Origin: Candidatus Lloydbacteria bacterium | Lineage (GTDB): Bacteria > Patescibacteriota > Minisyncoccia > Phycocordibacterales > UBA6899 | NCBI GenBank assembly: GCA_043719805.1 | Contig: JAYSTI010000001.1 | Location: 215,770 to 279,769 of the forward strand | Reading direction: 5' to 3' | DNA: 64,000 bases | In this document: positions 4,045 to 54,152 of the stretch, piece by piece | Numbering within the stretch: the stretch's first letter is position 1 | Layout: the number at the start of each line of letters is the position of its first letter | Position numbers and translations under genes: made by a program | Notes under the pieces: generated by a model | The model's input: the letters and a program-made list of their open reading frames with translations, nothing else | Databases searched by the model: none | Told to the model about the DNA's origin: nothing

Positions 4045-4140
4045 AACTTCGGAGCAACGACATCCGCTACGCCCTCGACTCATCCAAAGCCACCCGCGAA
4101 CTCGACTGGAAGTCGCTAAAGAATTTCGAGTAAGCACTCA
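4045..4140 (+). pseudogene. Orphan rmlB-like 3' fragment, copy B, with an in-frame stop
   Basis: Encodes IRYALDSSKATRELDWKSLKNFE*ALKETFSHYDTLG. Homologous to copies A and C but more diverged and interrupted by TAA. Confidence 0.5.
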
Positions 4141-4177
4141 AAGAAACGTTCAGCCACTATGACACTCTGGGGTGCAG

Positions 4178-4435
4178 CTACCGATAAACATCCTTGCGAT
4201 GCTGAATACGAAGGATGATTATGGCATGCCTATCGAGGTCGAAGATGATACGAAAATTGCCGACACGGAGACGATACTCCCCCGCAACATGATTATGTAA
4301 TTTCTTCGCCACTACGCCAATGTCGCCCAGCGAAGCAAAATGGACGAGCTTTTTATGCAATAGCCGTCGCACTGTTATGTTTTGTTTTTCAATATCCTTC
4401 TGCGCCCCCCTTGTGAACAATACTTTATACGGCAT
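4178..4435 (-). CDS. relE: RelE/ParE-family type II toxin
   Basis: 85 aa. GEYRLRVGNFRIIFDLDRHAIIILRIQHRKDVY matches the RelE/StbE core. The stop is 3 bp from the upstream antitoxin gene. Confidence 0.8.
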   Translation of the reverse strand: MPYKVLFTRGAQKDIEKQNITVRRLLHKKLVHFASLGDIGVVAKKLHNHVAGEYRLRVGNFRIIFDLDRHAIIILRIQHRKDVYR

Positions 4436-4857: not shown

Positions 4858-5010
4858 GGCCTCGGCCACGATACCTTCCCGCACTACGGCAGACGGGTCC
4901 GCTACGCCCTTGATTCGCGTAAGGCCACGCGTGAGCTCTGCTGGAAACCACTGAAGGATTTTGAACAGGGGCTCAAAGAAACATTCGACCACTACCGCTC
5001 CCTCAAATAA
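4858..5010 (+). pseudogene. Orphan rmlB-like 3' fragment, copy C. Longest copy, about 50 codons.
   Basis: Encodes ...HYGRRVRYALDSRKATRELCWKPLKDFEQGLKETFDHYRSLK*. No N-terminal dehydratase body upstream (4700-4850 is non-coding and AT-rich). Confidence 0.55.
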
Positions 5011-5036
5011 CAAAACATCCGCGAGCGGATGTCTTG

Positions 5037-6392: not shown

Positions 6393-6989
6393 ATGAGCAA
6401 AGATGTCGTTGACTTCATGCGAAACGCAAGCTGGGAAGAACTTGGCCCGATACTTCAGATTGTCGCAGACCGCGTCAACGAGAGCCGACGCGGGACGGGT
6501 GGCAATACGCCTCGTCCGATCTGGAGGGCATGTGTGGAGCTGGGGCCCTCTTATGCGTGTATCGAAATCGTGCTTTGGGTCAAAGATGACTCTGGAGAAA
6601 CCGTTGGCGTAGCCCTCAAAAAACGCGAAATGAGCGACCAGGGATGGGCTGGGAGCGAGCACGTAAATGGCTGCGCACTACGTCCGAACGATGACCTCGC
6701 GCGTGCTCAAGAGCGACTACTCGACGAGCTCACAGACGATGCTTGCCTGCGAGAACAACTCCGTACGTCATTCGAATCCCGGCATGCATTCATCGAAGTG
6801 CACCGGGAAGACCCCGAACGAAGCGTCAATTGCATGACCGCTGTTTGGGAAGCGTGGGTTCCCCTCTCTGCCATGACGCTCCTTAAGCCGGGATTTGTCT
6901 TTCGTCCGCTCAGCCAAATGTCAGCTGACGCGATTGTTGATCACCATCAGACCACGCTCGCGGACATGTACGCGAGCAGACTACGCTGA
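6393..6989 (+). CDS. Hypothetical protein with a degenerate Nudix-like box
   Basis: 198 aa. Locally GC-rich ORF with a good promoter. GCALRPNDDLARAQERLLDEL resembles a Nudix box with altered catalytic residues. Weak similarity to the WcaH-like Nudix pair at 56.3-57.5 kb. Confidence 0.3.
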   Translation: MSKDVVDFMRNASWEELGPILQIVADRVNESRRGTGGNTPRPIWRACVELGPSYACIEIVLWVKDDSGETVGVALKKREMSDQGWAGSEHVNGCALRPNDDLARAQERLLDELTDDACLREQLRTSFESRHAFIEVHREDPERSVNCMTAVWEAWVPLSAMTLLKPGFVFRPLSQMSADAIVDHHQTTLADMYASRLR

Positions 6990-7026: not shown

Positions 7027-8133
7027 CTATTTGCCTGCAAAAAAATCCTTTACTGCGTTGATGACTGCTTGCTGGTCAGCCACTGATAGTTCGGGATAAA
7101 TTGGGAGTGAGAGTATCTCGCCCGAGATCGCTTCAGCGTTCGGGAACATCCCTATTTTGTATTTCAAAAATCGATACGCCTCTTGTGCCGGAACGAGCAT
7201 GGGATAATGGACCGACGTCGCAATACCACACTTCTTCAGATGCTCCTGAAGTGCGCTACGTTCTTTTGTGCGTATCACAAAGAGATGCCAAACGGGATGA
7301 TGCGCCCTATCTTCTGCAGGAGGAAGCACGATCGGTAGATACGAAAATGCCTTGAGATATCGACATGCGATCTGTGCGCGTTTCTTGTTCCAAGAAGGAA
7401 GTTTTGTAAGCGACCAAGAGAGAAGCGCAGCCTGCATCTCGTCGAGCCTGCTATTGATACCCTCGATTGCATTTTTGTATTTTGCGACCTCGCCATAATT
7501 ACGAAGTTGCCACATGCGCTCAGCGAGCTCTTTGCTGTTGGTCCCAACAGCGCCTCCGTCGCCAAATGCACCAAGATTCTTTGTTGGATAGAAACTGAAG
7601 CATGCGATATCTCCAAATGTACCGACCATGCGCTTCCCGATTCGCGCGCCCACCGCCTGTGCAACGTCCTCCACGACGAAGAGTTTGTGCTTCCGTGCGA
7701 CCCGCATGATCGCTCCCATATCCGCAGGATGTCCGTAGATGTGGACGGGCAATATCACCTTGGTTCTTTTTGTTATCTTCGCCTCAATATTTTTTGGGTT
7801 TATATTGTAGGTTGCAAGATCGATGTCAACAAATACGGGGGTCGCACCCGCCATGCGTATTGCGGATATTGTCGGTGTTGCCGTGTGCGGAGTCGTGATG
7901 ACCTCGTCCCCCTTCCCGACGCCAAGTGCCCGGAGTGCAAGGAATATCGCGTCAGTACCCGAGTTGACACCATACACATGTTTTAGTCCCGCGAACTCTG
8001 CAAACTTCTTTTCAAACTCCTCCCCCTCAACACCAAGAATGAACCATCCGCGCCTGAGAACACGCCGAATGGCAGCATCGATCGCTTTTTTATTATCTCT
8101 ATATTTCTTCTTGAAATCATTGAACGGTATCAT
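7027..8133 (-). CDS. DegT/DnrJ/EryC1/StrS-family PLP-dependent sugar aminotransferase
   Basis: 368 aa. Family-typical N-terminus (FNDFKKKYRDNKKAIDAAIRRVLRRGWFILGVEGEEFEKKFAEFAG...VNSGTDAI) and architecture. 4-bp ATGA overlap with the upstream gene. Confidence 0.9.
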   Translation of the reverse strand: MIPFNDFKKKYRDNKKAIDAAIRRVLRRGWFILGVEGEEFEKKFAEFAGLKHVYGVNSGTDAIFLALRALGVGKGDEVITTPHTATPTISAIRMAGATPVFVDIDLATYNINPKNIEAKITKRTKVILPVHIYGHPADMGAIMRVARKHKLFVVEDVAQAVGARIGKRMVGTFGDIACFSFYPTKNLGAFGDGGAVGTNSKELAERMWQLRNYGEVAKYKNAIEGINSRLDEMQAALLSWSLTKLPSWNKKRAQIACRYLKAFSYLPIVLPPAEDRAHHPVWHLFVIRTKERSALQEHLKKCGIATSVHYPMLVPAQEAYRFLKYKIGMFPNAEAISGEILSLPIYPELSVADQQAVINAVKDFFAGK

Positions 8134-13318: not shown

Positions 13319-14194
13319 TTATCTCTTCAGGCAAGTATATAGCCAGTGAAAAAGATAACGTGGATTTTTACTTAGCAAAAATGCTTTCATGAAATATTGT
13401 TTTGCTTTTTCTGATTGTCCGGCATCACGGCACCACAGCGCAAGCCAGAAAATAAGCAGAGCGAGCTCGCGTGGATGCTGTGCATATAAAACCATATGCT
13501 TCTCGAGGAGTAGCTCTCTCCCCTTGATGCGCCGATCCAAGTTGCCTCCGATGTGCTCACCGCGCGCCGAGAGCATGTTCATACGCACAAGAGGCTTCGC
13601 GATGCCTATTCCTTTGTATTTCTGACCGATTCGCAACAAAAGATCGATCTCCTGGTGGCTCGGGAGTGACGCGTCAAACATACCGACATCCGCAAAAACT
13701 GAACGCCGAACCACGAGCGAGCTCGTGAGAAATCCTTTGAACCGGATGAGTATGATAGGTAGAAAATTGCGGACTCCGGGTACGACACGATTCACAACCT
13801 CGCCATTATCGGTAGTATTTGACACGCTCGTAACGGAGAATCCTACGTCTGGAGCAGTTTTCGTGAACTCCTCCAGTTGCAGGGCCAACTTCTCCGGCAA
13901 CCATTCGTCGTCGTCATCAAGAAACGCCACATACTTCCCCTTCGACTCACTAATGCCCACATTTCGCGTTGCTCCACCACCACGTTTTGGCGGGTCATTT
14001 TTAAGATATCGGATTCTTGGATCATGAAAACTCCCTACGACGTCCCTCGCCCCTATCTTATCTCCATCATCGACGACGACAATTTCGTAGTCGGTGAATG
14101 TCTGAGCCAATACGGATCGTAAGGCTCGCGCAACGAGCTCAGGGCGATTGAATGTCGGAACGACGACGGAAACGAGTGGTGATGATGTGGCCAT
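13319..14194 (-). CDS. GT2-family glycosyltransferase
   Basis: VSVVVPTFNRPELVARALRSVLAQTF...EIVVVDDG...VAFLDDDDEW: GT-A DXD-type motifs. Confidence 0.8.
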   Translation of the reverse strand: MATSSPLVSVVVPTFNRPELVARALRSVLAQTFTDYEIVVVDDGDKIGARDVVGSFHDPRIRYLKNDPPKRGGGATRNVGISESKGKYVAFLDDDDEWLPEKLALQLEEFTKTAPDVGFSVTSVSNTTDNGEVVNRVVPGVRNFLPIILIRFKGFLTSSLVVRRSVFADVGMFDASLPSHQEIDLLLRIGQKYKGIGIAKPLVRMNMLSARGEHIGGNLDRRIKGRELLLEKHMVLYAQHPRELALLIFWLALWCRDAGQSEKAKQYFMKAFLLSKNPRYLFHWLYTCLKR

Positions 14195-14268
14195 ATATTA
14201 GGAAAGCTTCACATTAAATTTTTTTACCCAAACTGAGAATTGTACGTTGGAAGTCTGCATTTAGTCTT
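14143..14268. repeat. Junction repeat copy 1: 5' end and leader of the GT2 gene plus a relic of the asnB 3' end
   Basis: About 94% identical to 15796-15927. Contains the GT2 start (MATSSPLVSVVVPTFNRP) on the minus strand, plus ttaggaaagcttcacattaaattttttt, which encodes ...VWVKKFNVKLS* (the asnB C-terminus) on the minus strand. A further degenerate partial copy lies at 14276-14325. Confidence 0.7.
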
Positions 14269-14401
14269 GCCCTCGAGCTCGCAGCGGTTGAATGTTGAAA
14301 TTACGACGGAAACACGGAGCATGGTGCTCTTTATAACCGACAAATAAGGTTATGGGTAGTATGGTGATAAACAAAGCACATTCTCGGATATTGTGTTCTT
14401 G

Positions 14402-15795: not shown

Positions 15796-15927
15796 GCCAT
15801 GGGGGCGATTGAATGTCGGGATGACGACGGAAACGAGTGGTGATGATGTGGCCATATATTAGGAAAGCTTCACATTAAATTTTTTTACCCAAAATGGGAA
15901 TTGTACATTGGAAGTCTGCATTTAGTC
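15796..15927. repeat. Junction repeat copy 2: duplicated GT2 5' fragment plus asnB 3' relic
   Basis: Minus strand encodes MATSSPLVSVVIPTFNRP followed by out-of-context sequence. Contains ttaggaaagcttcacattaaattttttt as in copy 1. A third, genuine copy of the asnB 3' end is at 16483-16556. Confidence 0.7.
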
Positions 15928-15982
15928 TTGCTGTAGTCACCATGTCGCGCAATGACAAAATATATTTTCTCGCACGGCATCC

Positions 15983-16448: not shown

Positions 16449-16490
16449 ACATGCATCATAACACGAGTTCAGCAGAAAATCAAAACTATT

Positions 16491-18350
16491 TTAGGAAAGC
16501 TTCACATTGAATTTTTTTGCCCAGACTTGGAATTGGACGATGGGGAGGAACTCCATGAGGTCTGCTTTCTCGAAGTGGACTTTTCCGTCGAGCGACCGCT
16601 TCTTGAGTGTGACAAAATCAAAAAGCTCTGCTGTGGGAGGGTAATACTCGGGGGTAAGAACGTCTCTCACCATCGCTCCAAATTCCCCCGACATCCATTC
16701 CGCTATCGGGGCGTTCCAACCGGTCTTCTTTTTATTGAGAATATAATCAGGGAGTTTTCCTTTGTATGCCTCCCGCACAAGTGATTTTTTCCCCATTCGC
16801 AATTTTTCCTGAGACGGTATGCCGTTCGCATAGCACACGAGGTCATTCGCGAGAAACGGAAACCTCCCTTCCATGCCAAAATGCATAATGACTTTATCGG
16901 TCCGCATGAATTCTTCGTTCGCAAGCCAGAACCATCGATCAAGTTCTGCAATCGCATTTACACGATCCCCGAGCGGGTCACTGAGCGGAGGAATGTCGGT
17001 ACCGAGAAAACTCCGCGTCGCATCCACCATGTCAAAACCATTCATAAAACGAAATGCGGGATTTCCGGAAGGAGGCGTAATTTTGTTCACGTATGCCCAC
17101 AACGAAATGTCTTCCCCGAGATGTAATATGTGTCCTGGTTTTACAAACCCACTCTTGAATCCCTCAACCGTGTACCGCGCGTCAAGAAGAAATTTTGGGT
17201 AGCGTTCATATTTTGCGGCTATATTTTTTGCATTCTGGTATCTCGGATAGCCCAAAAAGAGTTCGTCGCCGCCCGAACCATTGAGCACAACAGTGATGTC
17301 TTTTGATGCCATTTGTGCCAAGAGCCAATATGCGGGAACAGATGGGTTGTACCTTGGCTCTTCCATGGCCAAAATTGCCGCCTCATAAGTATCAATGAAC
17401 ATGCGCTCAGTAACAAGAAGCTCGTGATGAGCGATACGATAATCATCTGCAAGCCTCGCGGCAAGGTCTGCGTCTTCGTTGAACCTTGCATCTTTTGCCT
17501 CAAAGCGGGTTGTGTAGGTGTTCACCATCCCTCGCTCGCTCTCAGCGAGCTCATGGAGTATCACCGTTGAATCGAGTCCCCCGGAAAGAAAGAGTCCAAA
17601 CGGTCGCAGTCCCATGGTGTGCCCACGCACAGAATCACCAAATTTTTGCCGAAGCGCGGCAGGCGAGAACACTGCGTCCTTATCAATGCGGTCACTCCAC
17701 CCAAACCATTCATCACGCTCCTTGCCTGACGCAAGGTCAACCTCTTTCCATGAACCGGGTGGCAACTTTGATATGCCACTGACGAGCGTCTCCTTCGTCG
17801 GAGTATATCCGAACACAAAAAACGAGCGCGCCACTTCAATATTGAGAACCCGCGGCACGCCATAAGCAAAAAGTCCGCGCATTTCCGAAGAAAAGACAAG
17901 CGCCTCGTCATGGCGAGCCATGTAAAGTGGCTTCATCCCGGCGCGGTCGCGGGCCAAAAACACTTTTTGCTTTCGTTTGTCATAAAATGCGATGGCGAAC
18001 ATGCCGTCGAGACGAGAAAAATATGAAGGCCCATGACGCATCAGTCCTTCAAATATCACCTCCGTATCTCCGTCCGTGTGAAAAATTGCCCCCTCCCCCT
18101 CAAGTTCTTTTCTGAGTGTCTTGTAATTATAAATTTCACCGTTATAGACGAGGACATAATTCCCATCTTTTGATTCGTACGGCTGCTTGGCATTGACCGG
18201 AGTTTCTGTGATGGCAAGAAGATTCTGTCCGAATGTCACGTGCTCGTCACGAAATACCCCGACACCGTCGGGCCCGCGGTGCTTCGTCGCCTCGTTCATG
18301 CGCTCGATGCCGCCCGTCTCTTTTTTTAATATGCCGTTTATTCCACACAT
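16491..18350 (-). CDS. asnB: Asparagine synthase (glutamine-hydrolysing)-type amidotransferase, as found in glycan clusters
   Basis: Starts MCGI (Ntn class II glutamine amidotransferase nucleophile Cys2). 619 aa. AsnB synthetase-domain SGGLDS motif. Confidence 0.9.
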   Translation of the reverse strand: MCGINGILKKETGGIERMNEATKHRGPDGVGVFRDEHVTFGQNLLAITETPVNAKQPYESKDGNYVLVYNGEIYNYKTLRKELEGEGAIFHTDGDTEVIFEGLMRHGPSYFSRLDGMFAIAFYDKRKQKVFLARDRAGMKPLYMARHDEALVFSSEMRGLFAYGVPRVLNIEVARSFFVFGYTPTKETLVSGISKLPPGSWKEVDLASGKERDEWFGWSDRIDKDAVFSPAALRQKFGDSVRGHTMGLRPFGLFLSGGLDSTVILHELAESERGMVNTYTTRFEAKDARFNEDADLAARLADDYRIAHHELLVTERMFIDTYEAAILAMEEPRYNPSVPAYWLLAQMASKDITVVLNGSGGDELFLGYPRYQNAKNIAAKYERYPKFLLDARYTVEGFKSGFVKPGHILHLGEDISLWAYVNKITPPSGNPAFRFMNGFDMVDATRSFLGTDIPPLSDPLGDRVNAIAELDRWFWLANEEFMRTDKVIMHFGMEGRFPFLANDLVCYANGIPSQEKLRMGKKSLVREAYKGKLPDYILNKKKTGWNAPIAEWMSGEFGAMVRDVLTPEYYPPTAELFDFVTLKKRSLDGKVHFEKADLMEFLPIVQFQVWAKKFNVKLS

Positions 18351-41618: not shown

Positions 41619-41745
41619 AGTTTCGGAAGCACCACGCGATTGCGGTTCTCGGCATTCCACACGTTGTCGTTCGCGAAGGGGTTCACGTTCACCCTCAATC
41701 TCTCATCGGAGTTCCGGTTCACGTTGGCGACGAAATTTTCTGTGC
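41619..41745 (-). repeat. DGR template repeat (TR)
   Basis: 127 bp, 111 of 127 identical to 42063-42189. On the minus (sense) strand it reads ...ENFVANVNRNSDERLRVNVNPFANDNVWNAENRNRVVLPKL, rich in AAC (Asn) codons. All 16 differences from the VR fall at TR adenines. Confidence 0.85.
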
Positions 41746-42037: not shown

Positions 42038-42703
42038 TCAAGAGCTCTGCGCAGAAGCGTCCAGTTGCGGAAGCACCACGCGATAGCGGTTCTCGGCAAA
42101 CCACACGTTGCCGCTCGCGAAGGGGTACACGTACACCCCCAATCTCTCATCGGAGTACCGGTACACGTCGGCGACGAAAAACTCGGTGCCCACCGTGAAC
42201 GGAAGGAAGGTCGCCCAACCCTTCGGATGGAGCCACTTTGCGTGGTGCTCGACGAATGCAATCACCTGATCTTGGTTGAAAAAATTCGTGACGCCAGCGA
42301 ACATATCCTTGAAGGTGCTGTTGCGCACAAGCTCGTGGACCGCAATGCGCGTTACGCCAGTTGATGCCGACAGTACATCGAGTGCCGTGAAGCCGGAGTC
42401 GATGTGCCCAGGGAAGGTGCGCTTCGCCAGCGCAATCGACCGCAGCCCATCGGTTGCAGGGAGCATCAGCACGTTGTCACCGGAGAGGAGGCGGAGGTGG
42501 GGTTTGGGTGCCACGGGGACAGGTCGCGCATCGAGTCCGAGAAGCTTCAGTATCGCAGGCATGTTGCTGAAATCTGCCATGGGGTTGAGCGCAGCGGCGA
42601 TGATTCCACTGCCGTATGCGCGCTGAATGCTTTCGGCAGTTGCGCCTTGCTCCTCTCCTGTTTCGATGTACTTCTTCACTTGTCCGCCTGTCATTGTGCT
42701 CAT
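42038..42703 (-). CDS. DGR target (variable) protein, C-type-lectin/FGE-like C-terminus expected
   Basis: 221 aa. C-terminal GTEFFVADVYRYSDERLGVYVYPFASGNVWFAENRYRVVLPQL is encoded by the VR. The stop is 25 bp past the VR end. Confidence 0.75.
   Translation of the reverse strand: MSTMTGGQVKKYIETGEEQGATAESIQRAYGSGIIAAALNPMADFSNMPAILKLLGLDARPVPVAPKPHLRLLSGDNVLMLPATDGLRSIALAKRTFPGHIDSGFTALDVLSASTGVTRIAVHELVRNSTFKDMFAGVTNFFNQDQVIAFVEHHAKWLHPKGWATFLPFTVGTEFFVADVYRYSDERLGVYVYPFASGNVWFAENRYRVVLPQLDASAQSS
42063..42189 (-). repeat. DGR variable repeat (VR) at the 3' end of the target gene
   Basis: Aligns gap-free with the TR at an offset of +444. Mismatches only where the TR has A on the sense strand. 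TR Asn codons correspond to Y/D/S/F/G/Q in the VR. Confidence 0.85.
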
Positions 42704-49086: not shown

Positions 49087-49116
49087 AGTTATCTTCCCAC
49101 AAAAATCCGCAAAAGA

Positions 49117-49142
49117 AAAACCGAGCAACTTGTGCTCGGTGA
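49117..49142 (-). terminator. Rho-independent terminator (minus strand) after the 49147-49869 gene
   Basis: Minus-strand caccgagcacaagttgctcggtttttcttttg: 7-bp GC-rich stem and T-run. Near-identical copy at 52317-52343. Confidence 0.6.
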
Positions 49143-49146
49143 TGTG

Positions 49147-49869
49147 CTATGAGATGGCAATGTTTTCATTGATCCATTCGAGGGTGACTCCGGCGCGTGC
49201 GGCTTCCTGTTCCTGTCTCGCTCGCTTGGTGTCCTTCACTTCTACGTGATGTGCTTTTCCGTCTTCAGAATCCCTGATACGCAGGGCGGTTTCTTCACTT
49301 GGAGAAATGAGCACGGCGCATTTTCCATGCTTCTTGATAAGTCTCGCAAGCGGGGCAACCTCCTCGACGCCGATCACGCTGTCAAATCCACCCACATCAA
49401 GGAGGGCCTGCACGTTCCAAAATGCCATGGTGTTTTCGATGGGCATAGCATGCACAACATCAAGTTCGCTGATGCGCACACCGACAACATCAAAACCGGA
49501 CAGAAGGAGGTTTGCTGCGCTATCCATTACTCCGAAACTCAAATACTCCGAAGCTTTATTGGAAACAATCGCGACAAATTCGACGTCACCGCTCACCGCA
49601 CGAAGTGCCTGATTGAGCGCTTCGCCGCTATGGTGACCCGTCGCAGGGCAAACTTCCGCCCGCAAACCCTCGCGCTGAAATGCCTCAGTGAGAGAGGCAA
49701 CTGTTCCCCCAAAGTCATAGTCCGTTGGCACAACGACAAGTACGCGGTCGAACCCGCACAAAATTGCTTTTCTGACGCTTACAAGCGCCCGCTTCGCGAC
49801 TTCAGCGAGCTGCGCCTCCGTCTTTGCGTACGAACGAAGAAAAATCCCGCGACGTGCTTGGGTCATCAC
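49147..49869 (-). CDS. Hypothetical protein, member 1 of a local three-gene paralog family
   Basis: 240 aa. Shares AFW.VQ.LL.VGGFD...IGVEE blocks with 49958-50866 and 51355-52155. No signature motif recognised. Confidence 0.45.
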   Translation of the reverse strand: MMTQARRGIFLRSYAKTEAQLAEVAKRALVSVRKAILCGFDRVLVVVPTDYDFGGTVASLTEAFQREGLRAEVCPATGHHSGEALNQALRAVSGDVEFVAIVSNKASEYLSFGVMDSAANLLLSGFDVVGVRISELDVVHAMPIENTMAFWNVQALLDVGGFDSVIGVEEVAPLARLIKKHGKCAVLISPSEETALRIRDSEDGKAHHVEVKDTKRARQEQEAARAGVTLEWINENIAIS

Positions 49870-49957
49870 TGACTCCTTTGTAAGAACAAAAAGTTGACAA
49901 ACATTTACGACTCAGCCAACGACAATCATAACACAAACGTTAAACTTTGCAAAAGAG

Positions 49958-50866
49958 CTACTGCAATATCCCCTGCTCTATTATCTCGAGTGACTCGCCG
50001 ATACTCTTTGCCACATGCTCTTGCCTCTTTTCTTTTGTTGCAAGTTTTGCGAAATGCCGCCGATGCGCAACGGGGTCAATGGTTTCGTCCAGCTCTTTCC
50101 ACTTCGCCCCGTCGCAGGGCAACACAATGCCGATAGACGGACCAAAATATTTTACGAGTCGAATGAGCGGAATTATTTCTTCACCTCCGACGGCGGGATA
50201 TTCAATGTTTTTCCCCTCCGAGGGAACAGAGACCGTTTCACTCATGTGCAATCCTTTCTTCTTCTGCGCCGCACGAAGGTCAAATCCGCCGACAGACACG
50301 AGGCTCTTGTTGTGCCAGATAGAAAAAACATTTGACACCCTCCCCTTTACGACAAATCTTTCGAGCTCACGAAGAGCGAGTCCGGCTACACGAGCCCTGT
50401 TTTGCATCTGCCCGAGTAACCCAAAAACATTCTCTTTGGATATATATTCCGTAGCACCGTGAGAAATGATCATCGAATACGAAATACGATCTTCTAGCTG
50501 ATTCGCAATTCCGTAGTTGAGCAACACGCAGTAAATGTCCCCCTTTTTTATTTCCAGCACGTGCACTGGTGCATCAGGAAATCGTGACGAAACTTCCGTA
50601 CGCAGTCGCTCCCCCGAAAGCCCGCAATCACTATCAACGTAATCCCGATCACTCGACACCAGAAGGTCGATGCGGGCAAAAACCGGGCGATCATCAATTT
50701 TTATCGCAAGCAATTTTTCAACTGCGTCGAGTGCGGATTCCGTTTGATATTCCACCGCCTCGGGCGTCGTGGCAAACACACGAAGGAGCGCACCCACCCG
50801 ATTGCGCTCCAATAATTTTGCTGCGAGCTCATTTGACATACAAACAGTATAACAAAATCCCCCCAA
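49958..50866 (-). CDS. Hypothetical protein, paralog family member 2
   Basis: 302 aa. NVFSIWHNKSLVSVGGFD block shared with 49147-49869. Confidence 0.45.
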   Translation of the reverse strand: MGGFCYTVCMSNELAAKLLERNRVGALLRVFATTPEAVEYQTESALDAVEKLLAIKIDDRPVFARIDLLVSSDRDYVDSDCGLSGERLRTEVSSRFPDAPVHVLEIKKGDIYCVLLNYGIANQLEDRISYSMIISHGATEYISKENVFGLLGQMQNRARVAGLALRELERFVVKGRVSNVFSIWHNKSLVSVGGFDLRAAQKKKGLHMSETVSVPSEGKNIEYPAVGGEEIIPLIRLVKYFGPSIGIVLPCDGAKWKELDETIDPVAHRRHFAKLATKEKRQEHVAKSIGESLEIIEQGILQ

Positions 50867-50896
50867 GTTTCCTTGGGGGGATTACAGGAACAAATT

Positions 50897-51337
50897 CTAT
50901 TCGAGAAATTCCCCTTCATCCCGCGGTGCATCAACGGTAGCGGCGAAGGCCTCAAGCGTCAGCGTCCCAAACGGGAGAGGAACGTAGACGGTAAGGCTTG
51001 GCCTCACGACCATGGCGAGGTTGGGGCAATCACATCCCTTGTTATAGCGGATGATGGCAGACACGTTCTCTGCTCCAACTTGATTAACCACGTCGAGTAC
51101 GCGGCGAGACCGGAGCCTGTTCGTTACCTCGAAAGTCATGATTCCCTGAGAAAGTCCAACCAGCCAAAACCGGTCACTATACCCCCACTCAATCGTGTTC
51201 GGCTTCACCATGAGAACCGATTTGTTGATTGCACAGAGCCGCGCGTTAGACTCAAGGTCTCCGCCAACTTGTGCGGCGACCAGAGCGAGGTCAAGGTGGG
51301 TGGCAACGGGGAAACTATCTCCGATATTCAGTGTCAT
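50897..51337 (-). CDS. Hypothetical protein (146 aa)
   Basis: Open frame in a GC-rich region with sensible spacing to its neighbours. No recognised motif. Confidence 0.35.
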   Translation of the reverse strand: MTLNIGDSFPVATHLDLALVAAQVGGDLESNARLCAINKSVLMVKPNTIEWGYSDRFWLVGLSQGIMTFEVTNRLRSRRVLDVVNQVGAENVSAIIRYNKGCDCPNLAMVVRPSLTVYVPLPFGTLTLEAFAATVDAPRDEGEFLE

Positions 51338-51354
51338 ATCATTTCTCCTTCAGT

Positions 51355-52155
51355 TTAGATGTGAATGACGCGGCCGAACGGGATATTCGCAAGCGCCATT
51401 TGCTTTGCGGCACGGGTGAGCGCCGAGGCGCGCTTGTGCTCGTCGAGCACTTTGCGTGCTCCGACGATGCCGGAGGCATCACGATCTGCTCCGGTGACGT
51501 GAACGAGTTTCACTTTCGCATTCTCCACCCCGAGCATGTGCTGGATGAGGGAGAAGGTCGGCACCTCCTTGATTCCGGCCACCTTCATGCCGGGGTCATT
51601 CGGAGCACCGACATCTTCGAAGCGTTCACATCCGATCCACGGCGCTTCGCTCACGCCGATGAAATTGTAGAGCGCAAGCATCTGCACACGCACCAGCATG
51701 AATGCGTCAGCGGGCACGCGCATGCCGTTCATCTCGTGTTCGCCGGGAACGTGGTCGTGGAAACCCTCGAGTGCGGCGCCAACCACGAGGGTGTCCTCGG
51801 CGAGATGTGCGTCGAGCGCGGCGATGTTCACGTCGGTTGGCACATGTTCGGTATTCGCGAACAAGACCTTCTCGTGACCGTCGAATGCCGCCTGCATAAC
51901 GAGCGCATTCAGCGGCTCGACATAGCGACCCCACGGAGTGACAGGGAGAGCGAGCAGCTTCTTTCCGCGAGGCACAGGGAGTGTCTTGAGGAAGGAAAGC
52001 GTGTCGCCGATATCACGCACGGTGTTCACCGCAACATAGGCGGTATCGATGGCGTCGCAGCGGAAGCAGGCCGACACAAAACGGACAATCTTCAGCAGGC
52101 CGGCGTCGATGCCGGACATGTCGGAAATGAAAAAACGCGTCACAAGTGCGGTCAT
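51355..52155 (-). CDS. Hypothetical protein, paralog family member 3
   Basis: 266 aa. ADAFMLVRVQMLALYNFIGVSEAP resembles the shared block. Preceded by the conserved leader element. Confidence 0.45.
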   Translation of the reverse strand: MTALVTRFFISDMSGIDAGLLKIVRFVSACFRCDAIDTAYVAVNTVRDIGDTLSFLKTLPVPRGKKLLALPVTPWGRYVEPLNALVMQAAFDGHEKVLFANTEHVPTDVNIAALDAHLAEDTLVVGAALEGFHDHVPGEHEMNGMRVPADAFMLVRVQMLALYNFIGVSEAPWIGCERFEDVGAPNDPGMKVAGIKEVPTFSLIQHMLGVENAKVKLVHVTGADRDASGIVGARKVLDEHKRASALTRAAKQMALANIPFGRVIHI

Positions 52156-52200
52156 GGCTTGCCTTTCGATGTGCGCTTTTGCGCGGGGTTTGAATGGAGA

Positions 52201-52272
52201 GTTCTTCTCTTCACTGAGTTAAACCTTCTCGACAAAGTTGAGTCGATAAGGGATATGAATCAAAGAACGATA
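52201..52272 (-). promoter_or_regulatory. Conserved 72-nt leader element, copy A: candidate cis-regulatory RNA or promoter/operator
   Basis: Aligns gap-free with 53014-53085. The first 14 and last 18 nt are identical. The central hairpin arms differ (tcgac/gtcga versus ccggc/gccgg) while staying complementary. The loop aaagttga is conserved. Confidence 0.5.
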
Positions 52273-52316
52273 CTGTTGTATTATACATAAAATACGCTTT
52301 CTGTCAAGAAGAAGTA

Positions 52317-52343
52317 AAAACCGAGCAGCTTGTGCTCGGTGGG
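52317..52343 (-). terminator. Rho-independent terminator (minus strand) after the 2H phosphoesterase gene
   Basis: Minus-strand caccgagcacaagctgctcggttttta. One substitution relative to the 49117-49142 copy. Confidence 0.6.
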
Positions 52344-52354
52344 ACTACCGTGAT

Positions 52355-52981
52355 TCAGAATCTCCAGGCTTCAACTATCGCTTCTTTCTTCATTTGTCCG
52401 AATTCATTGATCACCCCGAAATACAGAGCCCTTGGGGCAAATGTGGTTCGAGGAAGACGAAACTGCTCTACCTCCACGACATCAGCACTGTGTTGCAGTC
52501 GGGCGATGGTGACGTGTGGGTGGTAGTACTCCCCCGTTGCAAGCATGCCGTAACGCAAAATTCGATCTTGTTCCGTCGACGTTGCCGTGAGCATGGCCTT
52601 ACTTGCCTGCGGAAGTAACCGGCCGGCCGCAAACGCACTCATGTGTGATGCGACGAATTCATGAAGGCGGCAGAGTGTGGGTGCTACTTCCAAATTCCAA
52701 AATACATTGTTGTTCTTTCTCACCTCGAGTCTGTCGACGAGAATAAGTTGCTTTGTCTTTGGCTTATTTACGACCAACTCCATTTTCAGCTCTTCCCATG
52801 CGCAGAGGGCATCTCGCATATTCGCGAATCGCCCCTGATACAGCGTTACGTGAGAATGGTATTCCGGGGAGAGCTCATACAAAAGCAGAATGCGTTCGTC
52901 GTAAAAACGAGAAACGGTGCGGCGAGCGGAAGCATCGACGCGCCCAGAGAGTGCGAGTGCAACTCCACAATCATAGGTCAT
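52355..52981 (-). CDS. 2H phosphoesterase superfamily protein (LigT/ThpR-like 2',3'-cyclic phosphodiesterase)
   Basis: Two H-x-T-x motifs (HSHVTLYQG and HPHVTIARL) spaced about 95 aa apart, as in LigT-like 2H enzymes. Confidence 0.6.
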   Translation of the reverse strand: MTYDCGVALALSGRVDASARRTVSRFYDERILLLYELSPEYHSHVTLYQGRFANMRDALCAWEELKMELVVNKPKTKQLILVDRLEVRKNNNVFWNLEVAPTLCRLHEFVASHMSAFAAGRLLPQASKAMLTATSTEQDRILRYGMLATGEYYHPHVTIARLQHSADVVEVEQFRLPRTTFAPRALYFGVINEFGQMKKEAIVEAWRF

Positions 52982-53013
52982 GTGACCTCCTGTTTTATTA
53001 CCAATGAGGAAGC

Positions 53014-53085
53014 GTTCTTCTCTTCACGAAGTTGGGCCAGACCGGCAAAGTTGAGCCGGTTGGGGGCATGAATCAAAGAACGATA
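53014..53085 (-). promoter_or_regulatory. Conserved 72-nt leader element, copy B
   Basis: See copy A. Located between the YvcK/CofD-like gene stop (53112) and the 2H gene start (52981). Confidence 0.5.
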
Positions 53086-53111
53086 TGATTCAGAATTACA
53101 CGAAATGTGAC

Positions 53112-54152
53112 TTATGTCAATATACTCGCAAGGACGGAGGCAAGCTTGTCTGAGTCGTGGCGAATAAGTGTGCGACGCAGAAGGTCCTTCTTTGGGGTTT
53201 TTGCGACTCCCTCGGCGAGCAGATCACGACCGATCAATCTTTCCTTGTCGCCCTTCACGCACTTGTCGGTGCAGACCACGGGCTCCCCTTCGTCGGCATA
53301 GCGCCGCACGAGGGTCTGCGGAGGTTTTTTTGTGTTGTACACAATAAGATCAAATGCTTTCTTCCCGATATATTCTTCGAGTGCACGGACATAATCGGTC
53401 ACCGAGAAATTATCGGTATGACCCTGCTGACTCATGAGGTTCGTCACAAACACTTTTTTTGCTTTTGAATTCATGAACGCACGGGAGACGCCGCGCACGA
53501 GAAAATTTGGAAGTATCGATGTGTAGAGCTTGCCGGGACCGACAACAATGAGGTCCGCTTCTTTGATTGCCTTGAGTGCCATCGGATTTGCATTTCCCGT
53601 CGGCTCGAGAAATATTTTTTTGATTCCGTATTTTGAGACGAGCTGATATTCCATAAATGTACTTTCGCCGTGCAGGACCTTGCCGTTTTCAAGTTCAGCG
53701 TGCAGCGAAATCCTATCGAGCGTCACCGGGACAACGCGTCCGCGGATATTCAAAATCTTTCCCGCAACGTCGAGTGCTTTATCGATACTTCCGGTGACTT
53801 GCTCTAGTGTCGAAATGAAAATATTCCCAAAATTATGTCCAGAAAGTTCGCCTTTCGCATAACGATGATTGAAAAGTTTGCGCATTACCTGATCAGCATC
53901 AGAAAGCGCGACGAGGCACTGGCGTAGGTCACCGGGAGGAAGCACACCGAACTCATCGCGGAGTCTCCCCGTAGAACCTCCGTCGTCCGCCATAGAAACG
54001 ATTGCGGTGAGATCGAGTGGATAATGCTTAAGGCCGGAGAGCACGGTAAAAGTACCGGTGCCACCACCCATCACAACCACCCTCGGGTTAGACTTCAAAC
54101 GGCGAACTTCCTTTGTGTTTTTTTTACTATTTTTTTGTTTTTTTGTGTCCAT
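53112..54152 (-). CDS. YvcK/CofD-family (UPF0052) protein: gluconeogenesis factor / 2-phospho-L-lactate-transferase-like
   Basis: VVVMGGGTGTFTVLSGLK...LTAIVSMADDGGSTGRLRDEFGVLPPGDLRQCLVAL is the family signature. Confidence 0.85.
   Translation of the reverse strand: MDTKKQKNSKKNTKEVRRLKSNPRVVVMGGGTGTFTVLSGLKHYPLDLTAIVSMADDGGSTGRLRDEFGVLPPGDLRQCLVALSDADQVMRKLFNHRYAKGELSGHNFGNIFISTLEQVTGSIDKALDVAGKILNIRGRVVPVTLDRISLHAELENGKVLHGESTFMEYQLVSKYGIKKIFLEPTGNANPMALKAIKEADLIVVGPGKLYTSILPNFLVRGVSRAFMNSKAKKVFVTNLMSQQGHTDNFSVTDYVRALEEYIGKKAFDLIVYNTKKPPQTLVRRYADEGEPVVCTDKCVKGDKERLIGRDLLAEGVAKTPKKDLLRRTLIRHDSDKLASVLASILT

Follow-up and report, generated by a model that had tools for sequence, protein, structure and literature searches.

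A conserved, covarying RNA fold at the predicted 5' ends of glycan-associated mRNAs in Patescibacteria

The window analysed here is a stretch of 64,000 nucleotides (nt) from a contig of Candidatus Lloydbacteria (JAYSTI010000001.1, positions 215,770 to 279,769), and the element in question is a leader that occurs twice on its minus strand, each time between a promoter and a gene (Table 1). Copy B lies between a gene of the CofD/YvcK family and an open reading frame (ORF) for a 208-aa protein. Copy A, at a spacing of 813 nt from copy B, has a terminator-like hairpin upstream (52340..52320, followed by a run of T) and the ORF for a 266-aa protein downstream. A sequence-only reading of this region had described two segments that align without gaps, with identical ends and a centre that differs in a complementary way, and the alignment of the two copies bears this out. 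The direct repeat measures 75 nt at 77% identity (52198-52272 versus 53011-53085) and is the sole such pair at the locus; the terminal 14-mers GTTCTTTGATTCAT and GTGAAGAGAAGAAC each occur twice in the 64-kb window with 0 mismatches. The centres tcgac-aaagttga-gtcga and ccggc-aaagttga-gccgg differ by two compensatory pairs around a conserved 8-nt loop, and the outer segments (gttctt / aagaac) also pair. The repeat is not part of a larger duplication, since alignment beyond its edges is limited to the -35 hexamer, and neither the coding sequences downstream nor their proteins are related. The gene context had likewise been read correctly; the 2H-phosphoesterase label of the 208-aa protein is weak by hidden Markov models (E 0.004, below the cut-off; two H-x-T-x motifs, HVTL and HVTI, are present). 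The surrounding genes encode GT4 transferases, UDP-glucose dehydrogenases, epimerases and PMT-type transferases, and the leader is therefore taken to head envelope-glycan genes.

Table 1. Features of the leader locus in window coordinates. P1, P1b and P2 are the helices of the fold described in the text; CM, covariance model; MFE, minimum free energy; SD, Shine-Dalgarno sequence.
Feature	Position	Strand	Details
yvcK/cofD-like gene	53112..54152	-	Pfam CofD E 1.5e-93; upstream neighbour of the leader in L133, L142, L164, L171, L172
Promoter B	53093..53120	-	-35 TTGACA 53120..53115, 16-nt spacer, -10 TAATTC 53098..53093
Leader copy B	53009..53085	-	77-nt model match, CM R1 93.7 bits, E 1e-22; MFE -28.8 kcal/mol, z -4.5
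Copy B helix P1 to P1	53081..53014	-	P1 53081-53075 / 53020-53014
Copy B G.A-A.G loop	53074-53073 / 53022-53021	-	P1b 53072-53068 / 53027-53023
Copy B P2	53064-53055 / 53046-53037	-	loop UCAACUUU 53054-53047
Gene of leader B, 208-aa 2H-phosphoesterase-like protein	52355..52981	-	two HxTx motifs, SD AGGAGG
Intrinsic-terminator-like hairpin closing unit B	52310..52340	-	ACCGAGCACAAGCUGCUCGGU + UUUUU
Promoter A	52280..52307	-	TTGACA-16-TATAAT, 12/12 consensus matches
Leader copy A	52196..52272	-	CM R1 99.7 bits, E 3e-24; MFE -22.0 kcal/mol, z -2.3
Copy A helix P1 to P1	52268..52201	-	P1 52268-52262 / 52207-52201
Copy A G.A-A.G loop	52261-52260 / 52209-52208	-	P1b 52259-52255 / 52214-52210
Copy A P2	52251-52242 / 52233-52224	-	loop UCAACUUU 52241-52234
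Gene of leader A, 266-aa protein	51355..52155	-	no Pfam/NCBIfam match; predicted GT-A fold (glycosyltransferase/nucleotidyltransferase-like)

In total, eight full-length copies were found in six loci, with covariance model scores of 73-103 bits; six of these copies, in five loci, lie outside the window and were found by pattern scans and the covariance model. The strict-pattern scan covered 185,579 species genomes and returned 28 stretches, of which two hold true copies (L133 and L142, the latter from a Candidatus Saccharibacteria metagenome-assembled genome, the closest named relative), so that both of these species genomes have a single true match. A scan of JGI metagenomes gave one positive contig, L164, from Hainich groundwater. 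The other 26 of the 28 genome stretches, and six of the seven metagenome matches, are chance matches within coding regions. A covariance model built from five copies yielded a second copy on L164 (the two are called L164a and L164b) and the copies on contigs L171 and L172, which were reached via the p302 protein family (302-aa proteins). The loose pattern GTTCTTTGA-N(5-35)-GAGAAC gave at least 120 matches in viral contigs, apparently by chance, and stricter patterns were used thereafter. Among the matches listed, the distribution of the leader is narrow.

The gene order around the copies is glycosyltransferase gene(s), yvcK, promoter and leader, one or two variable genes, and the p302 gene; most copies sit directly after the yvcK/cofD-like gene and before the variable, glycan-related genes. 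The extra gene is that of the 2H phosphoesterase in the window and that of a Gfo/Idh/MocA oxidoreductase in L164, and in both loci the promoter-leader module is doubled. As a side observation, the locus is a mosaic when L171 (7044-8190) is compared with the window (53009-54152) and with L133: the YvcK protein of L171 is 96% identical to that of the window, with 57% identity at four-fold sites, its p302 protein is only 58% identical to that of the window, and L171 and L133 share one and the same leader core. These identities point to recombination at or near the leader, at the boundary of a variable gene cassette.

All eight copies share one fold when each is folded alone (z = -2.3 to -4.6), and RNAalifold independently gives the same fold from a MAFFT alignment and from the model alignment. 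From 5' to 3', it is composed of a 7-bp outer helix P1 (GUUCUUU/GAAGAAC), a GA/GA internal loop, helix P1b (UCAU/GUGA), an asymmetric internal loop with sides of 2-3 and 8-9 nt, helix P2a, a 1x1 mismatch, helix P2b and an apical 8-nt loop, UNWACUUU. The GA/GA loop (columns 12-13 / 64-65) is present in 8/8 copies, and position 14-63 beside the G.A pairs is U-A, U.U or A.G. For copies A and B, the minus strand folds with z = -2.3 and -4.5 relative to dinucleotide shuffles, and the plus strand with z = -1.1 and -1.6. Across the eight copies, standard pairs occupy 95.2% of the cells, compared with 87.9±1.6% after shuffling (0/500 reach the observed value) and 44-54% when the partners are slid. Double changes were seen in six of the nine P2 pairs (13 cells; for instance U-A/C-G, G-C/C-G and A-U/G-C); RNAalifold shows an A-U to G-C change at pair 19-58, and an alignment of six sequences made with MAFFT only gives the same covariation picture. 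Over both alignments, the figures span 95-96% standard pairs, 88-90% in shuffles, 44-55% with slid partners, and 5-6 P2 pairs with double changes. G.U pairs make up 17 of the 168 pair cells (U11.G66, U18.G59, U8.G69, G30.U41) and therefore mark the sense RNA strand, as they would be A.C mismatches on the opposite one. The sequence-only reading had taken structure-preserving covariation to indicate a functional element and not a drifted duplication; the compensatory hairpin changes between copies from independent genomes uphold that view.

Identity between copies was 94.9% in P1, the GA loop and P1b, 88.8% in the apical loop, 73.5% in the 3' junction and 63.2% in the P2 stems, which are paired nonetheless. 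Thus, the covarying P2 hairpin is the less conserved, replaceable part of the element, and the outer helix with the tandem G.A loop is its invariant part. The neutral baseline was taken from four-fold degenerate sites in yvcK and in the p302 gene, where identity is 29-41% (saturated) and reaches 57% in one closer pair. Conservation of the leader is far above this level, clearly the pattern expected of purifying selection. Overall, the element is very probably a functional structured leader RNA, in line with the earlier suggestion of a cis-regulatory RNA.

A non-functional local duplication or small mobile repeat, akin to miniature inverted-repeat transposable elements (MITE) or repetitive extragenic palindromes (REP) with 14-bp imperfect terminal inverted repeats, would account for two copies 813 nt apart whose terminal segments are inverted repeats, and for the near identity of the terminators at 49116 and 52316. 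It would not account for an orthologous position in six genomes despite saturated synonymous sites, for an orientation that is always sense and directly behind a promoter, or for double changes that preserve base pairing; moreover, the 64-kb window contains just two copies, and each positive genome gave a single strict match. We regard this explanation as hardly credible. The two terminator hairpins themselves (49116-49141 and 52316-52341), which close the two units, are 96% identical over 26 nt, which suggests that promoter-leader-gene-terminator cassettes were assembled through local duplication.

Shorter forms of the element occur in more distant genomes. In L002 and L010, only the P1 box GUUCUUUGA...GAGAAC persists; it lies as far from the promoter as in the full-length copies and encloses an insert that varies, and the 9-mer GTTCTTTGA lies 10-11 nt after -10 boxes in contigs that encode relatives of the copy-A protein. 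The short forms precede a homologue of the copy-A protein (L010), a homologue of p302 (L002) and an EamA transporter gene (L002). Between GTTCTTTGA and GAGAAC they have inserts of 9, 26 and 31 nt, and in every case the fold is a hairpin. No copy was present upstream of the members of the gene-A family in L006-L009, L011, L167-L170 and L173, and in L001 and L005 the regions upstream of this family bear different leaders. L001, a more distant genome, contains another repeated leader, ..GUCACCC(C)UGCUACCAAGCAGGCUU..AACCAG..GCUUGAGGG.., at 6830-6950 and 7890-8000, before two paralogous genes of the GT-A superfamily; from the sequences, the gene family in L001 appears to have gained a shared leader independently.

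The position of the element relative to the promoter is fixed. In all 11 copies, long and short, the element starts 10-11 nt beyond the -10 hexamer: 11 nt past the -10 box of TTGACA-16-TATAAT for copy A and 10-11 nt past that of TTGACA-16/17-TAATTC for copy B, where promoter scoring prefers the adjacent register AATTCT (9/12 matches, 10 nt to the box). The -35 hexamer of promoter B is inside the last codons of yvcK, and the yvcK stop codon follows directly. All remaining copies have the layout TTGACA-16/17-(-10)-11 nt in common; the promoter of L164a, read by eye, is TTGACA-17-TACAAC-11 nt. Each copy is thus predicted to form the extreme 5' end of an mRNA made from a sigma-70-type promoter. 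The RNA start would fall about 3 nt before the first pair of P1, because the start site is taken at about 7 nt past the -10 box.

"Operator plus promoter" had been among the functions proposed for the element. The promoter half of this proposal stands, with a -10 box 10-11 nt before each copy; the operator half does not fare as well. A DNA-level operator would have a transcription factor bind GTTCTTTGA at +4 to +12 together with its inverted partner, the RNA fold being incidental. This agrees with the constant distance from the -10 box and with the 5' half, which stays the same as far as the distant genomes although the 3' half does not; in addition, some of the -35 boxes coincide in part with a second palindrome, TTGACATAAGTCAA. 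The half-sites are, however, 9, 26, 31 or 58 nt apart, unlike the fixed spacing seen with dimeric repressors; the compensatory changes and the G.U pairs are marks of RNA, specific to one strand, and the covariation of the interior hairpin has no reason at the DNA level. An operator is therefore highly improbable. The palindrome TTGACATAAGTCAA or a near variant of it overlaps the -35 boxes at ~1135-1150 and ~2265-2280 in L002, ~53107-53120 in the window and ~8080-8095 in L171, and is possibly a DNA operator of its own.

A 5'-terminal position of the helix bears on the fate of the mRNA. Stem-loops at the 5' terminus stabilise bacterial mRNAs, and RppH requires at least 2-3 unpaired 5' nucleotides (PMC3997798). 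With only about 3 nt between the predicted 5' end and its first pair, the P1 helix should hinder 5'-end-dependent decay. A constitutive stabiliser hairpin that blocks 5'-end-dependent RNases, with no regulator, would make use of this established principle (PMC3997798); the predicted distance of about 3 nt is kept in all copies, and L001 and L005 carry unrelated 5'-terminal hairpins before homologous genes. Such a stabiliser leaves unexplained, against saturated neutral sites, the ~95% identity of 28 helix nucleotides, the 89% identity of the loop and the conservation of the tandem G.A pairs, and we consider it quite unlikely.

With moderate confidence, we favour a 5'-terminal leader RNA that is recognised by a factor and controls the fate of the mRNA, representing an uncatalogued family in a known general class. 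A specific binding partner is inferred because the helix with its non-canonical pairs and the loop are invariant in sequence. A trans-acting factor would recognise both the conserved loop and the invariant helix P1/G.A/P1b; the 5'-terminal helix would set the fate of the mRNA by shielding its 5' end from 5'-end-dependent decay and/or by making the pyrimidine box UUCUUU unavailable for pairs with the Shine-Dalgarno region; and envelope-glycan genes would as a result be co-regulated. Since the targets are few (one or two short units per genome), a local regulator or a cis-acting sensor would fit. As the effector, a protein is more likely than a metabolite. Within a functional leader, factor-recognised control of stability or translation is plausible while short of probable; a riboswitch is unlikely, a constitutive stabiliser more so, and an antitermination signal more so again.

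The 5' strand of P1, UUCUUU(G), is complementary to ribosome-binding sites of the AAGGAG type, and this bears on the riboswitch reading. As a metabolite-sensing riboswitch, P1b, the internal loop, P2 and the apical loop would be the aptamer for a small molecule linked to envelope-glycan synthesis, e.g. a nucleotide sugar, and the ligand-stabilised P1 would sequester the UUCUUU box and turn translation on; both the class and this way of working seem unlikely to us. The stems covary and bases of the loop and junction are conserved, and the one or two copies per genome stand before related genes (GT-A-fold proteins, the Gfo/Idh/MocA oxidoreductase, the 2H phosphoesterase) and beside yvcK. In L142, L171 and L164a, the MFE fold pairs the 5' strand of P1 with the Shine-Dalgarno/start region, and the C-to-U change of L164a strengthens the duplex with the start region of that copy's own gene (-10.7 kcal/mol). 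However, what is most conserved in the element is its outer helix, at the level of sequence, whereas outer helices of riboswitches normally covary freely, and the short form with a 9-nt insert retains the box yet is too small for an aptamer. The distance from the element to the Shine-Dalgarno sequence ranges from ~15 to ~85 nt with unrelated hairpins in between, and there is no match in Rfam. Complementarity between box and Shine-Dalgarno sequence is not above background, and an anti-Shine-Dalgarno expression platform is not supported: duplexes of the box with the translation initiation region (TIR) of the own genes average -6.4, versus -5.9 for 42 other starts (p = 0.28). Less likely than a riboswitch in general is a new class, limited to Patescibacteria, with the element as its aptamer; it would sense a nucleotide sugar or another envelope-glycan precursor, and ligand binding would lock P1 and free the UUCUUU box. 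The pairing of box and start would, as a possibility only, make the formation of P1 a translational on-switch.

An attenuator had also been proposed, and this proposal fails: a hairpin with a U-tract is found in 0/8 leaders, and U runs outside the box do not exceed 4. Another way to act on transcription would be a recruitment signal for processive antitermination, analogous to JUMPStart/ops (RfaH) or the LoaP hairpin, that loads an elongation factor on RNA polymerase. Known systems of this kind use leader elements, namely ops (PMC6391919) and the dfn/mln hairpin for LoaP (PMC12691694). Here, too, the same leader starts several glycan gene units and has a conserved sequence just past the promoter, and in six genomes a strong terminator-like hairpin lies within the gene row, before the p302 gene. 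The units are short (one or two genes), however, and the p302 gene apparently has its own extended -10 promoter, TGTTATACT, so that read-through is not required. The ops consensus GGCGGTAGnnTG (up to 2 mismatches) is absent from 7/8 leaders, with one chance-level match of 2 mismatches in L164b, and no UNCG hairpin of at least 4 bp occurs in the leaders. No NusG- or RfaH-like ORF was found by phmmer with E. coli NusG and RfaH in the window and 11 loci, a weak point given the small sample of each genome. An antitermination signal is thus very unlikely.

Known families and other signals were also searched for. None of the 4227 Rfam models matched at the gathering score in the window, L133, L142, L171 and L172; at E values up to 10, the matches were chance-level hits to snoRNA and miRNA models, none of them over the element in sense. 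ARAGORN found 0 tRNA or tmRNA genes in the window. A kink-turn was rejected, since the G.A loop is symmetric (2x2 or 3x3) in all folds and has no 3-nt bulge; the register with a UUU bulge leaves only a 3-bp C stem, which is broken in L172. A leader peptide was likewise rejected, as the element has no AUG and a UUG-initiated frame lacks a conserved stop or Shine-Dalgarno sequence. The element may be a processing site, as the sequence-only reading had listed.

Several points weigh against the factor-recognised leader that we favour. P1 and P1b are without double changes, and their pairing rests on U-A to U.G changes (C8U in L164a; G66A in L172) and on energy. The comparison covers only eight sequences from one clade, two of them with identical cores, and kinship alone can exceed the shuffle control. 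The 5' end of the leader is predicted from promoter geometry only. The MFE fold exchanges P1 for pairing of the box with the TIR in 3/8 full-length leaders (L142, L171 and L164a), which may be signal or noise, and the complementarity of the box is no stronger for the Shine-Dalgarno sequences of the own genes than for the 42 unrelated starts. No candidate binding protein was identified for the leader. Finally, a plain stabiliser hairpin would need no invariant sequence, and the factor would have to be a dedicated protein for one or two targets per genome, which is possible.

The proteins encoded next to the leaders were also examined. The 266-aa protein is predicted by AlphaFold with a pLDDT of 94, and its best Foldseek matches are EXTL2 and mannosylglycerate synthase (E 2e-8, TM ~0.55). 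The p302 protein belongs to no Pfam or NCBIfam family and has a predicted GT-A fold (pLDDT 94); p302 as a KH-like RNA-binding autoregulator was dismissed, because its weak similarity to uS3 (E 0.004) is spurious and the predicted fold is GT-A. Among 5.8 billion proteins, the 266-aa family comprises 23 clusters and the 302-aa family 58. The 266-, 302- and 240-aa proteins of the window (49147-52155), none of which has a Pfam match, are distant paralogues of each other and of 240-type proteins in related loci. By structure prediction, the 266- and 302-aa proteins are uncharacterised glycosyltransferase-like families restricted to the candidate phyla radiation (CPR).

Directly before the p302 gene lies a conserved GC-rich hairpin with a GGAAAC loop, followed by UUUUGUUAUACU. 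It is located at 50846-50883 (minus strand) in the window, ~9950-9990 in L171, 9959-9992 in L172 and ~2395-2430 in L142, and at ~1730-1760 in L164 and ~1040-1100 in L133, both of which have an extra palindromic insert. In 5/6 genomes, the U tail of this hairpin holds the extended -10 box TGTTATACT, 6 nt before the ATG and with no Shine-Dalgarno sequence; this arrangement suggests that terminator and promoter are fused here and that p302 has a separate, leaderless mRNA. Other repeats were noted elsewhere in the window. A second intergenic family among minus-strand ORFs has two copies of 129 nt at 96% identity (14142-14270 and 15803-15931) and a third of 57 nt at 86% (16487-16543), and may be another shared promoter or leader. 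Direct repeats of 112 nt occur in three copies with 71-86% identity (2759-2870, 4071-4182 and 4906-5017), and a pair of 127 nt with 87% identity is present at 41619-41745 and 42063-42189.

Patescibacteria (CPR) have tiny genomes with few recognisable regulators, and to our knowledge almost no gene control has been studied experimentally in this group. The leader points to post-transcriptional co-regulation of the cell surface, the host interface of these episymbiotic bacteria, and it marks a boundary where glycan gene cassettes appear to have been exchanged between genomes. It provides a concrete 77-nt object for binding and reporter work, together with a covariance model for larger assemblies. 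Should the riboswitch reading be true, the element would join the glmS ribozyme as an RNA sensor for glycan building blocks, the first apart from it, and would offer a rare way into gene regulation in uncultured bacteria with reduced genomes.

Among known systems, the kink-turn (C/D-box-like) resembles the element in its tandem sheared-type G.A/A.G pairs, followed by U.U in three copies; the 3' strand reads GUGAUGA in L133, L142 and L171, and the 3-nt bulge of the kink-turn is lacking. JUMPStart/ops, of the RfaH-dependent polysaccharide operons of Enterobacteria, is likewise a short element repeated in the untranslated leaders of several surface-glycan clusters within one genome, at the boundary of variable cassettes. 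The ops element, however, is a 12-nt signal in non-template DNA (GGCGGTAGnnTG) whose distance from the start site varies, whereas the element described here is a 72-nt covarying RNA fold with no ops-like sequence; the RfaH system also depends on a NusG paralogue, of which none was seen in the small sample formed by the window and 11 loci. The dfn/mln hairpin of LoaP in Bacillus velezensis is a leader RNA hairpin that serves more than one gene cluster and is recognised by the protein through sequence and shape (PMC12691694). It is a small stem with a UNCG tetraloop upstream of intrinsic terminators, in contrast to the 8-nt loop UNWACUUU and the terminator-free leader found here. Orphan riboswitch candidates and structured cis-regulatory leaders in Rfam were likewise discovered by comparative analysis, and in them too the stems covary, the loops are conserved and the neighbouring genes form a coherent set; the element differs from them in the sequence invariance of its outer helix and in having no recognisable expression platform. 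The 5' stabiliser stem-loops (ompA, papA and the B. subtilis aprE type; PMC3997798) place a helix within a few nucleotides of the mRNA 5' end, upstream of the ribosome-binding site and apart from it, as is predicted for the element. These stabilisers act by shape and not by sequence, whereas in the element described here 28 helix nucleotides are near-invariant, the apical loop is conserved and a tandem G.A loop is present.

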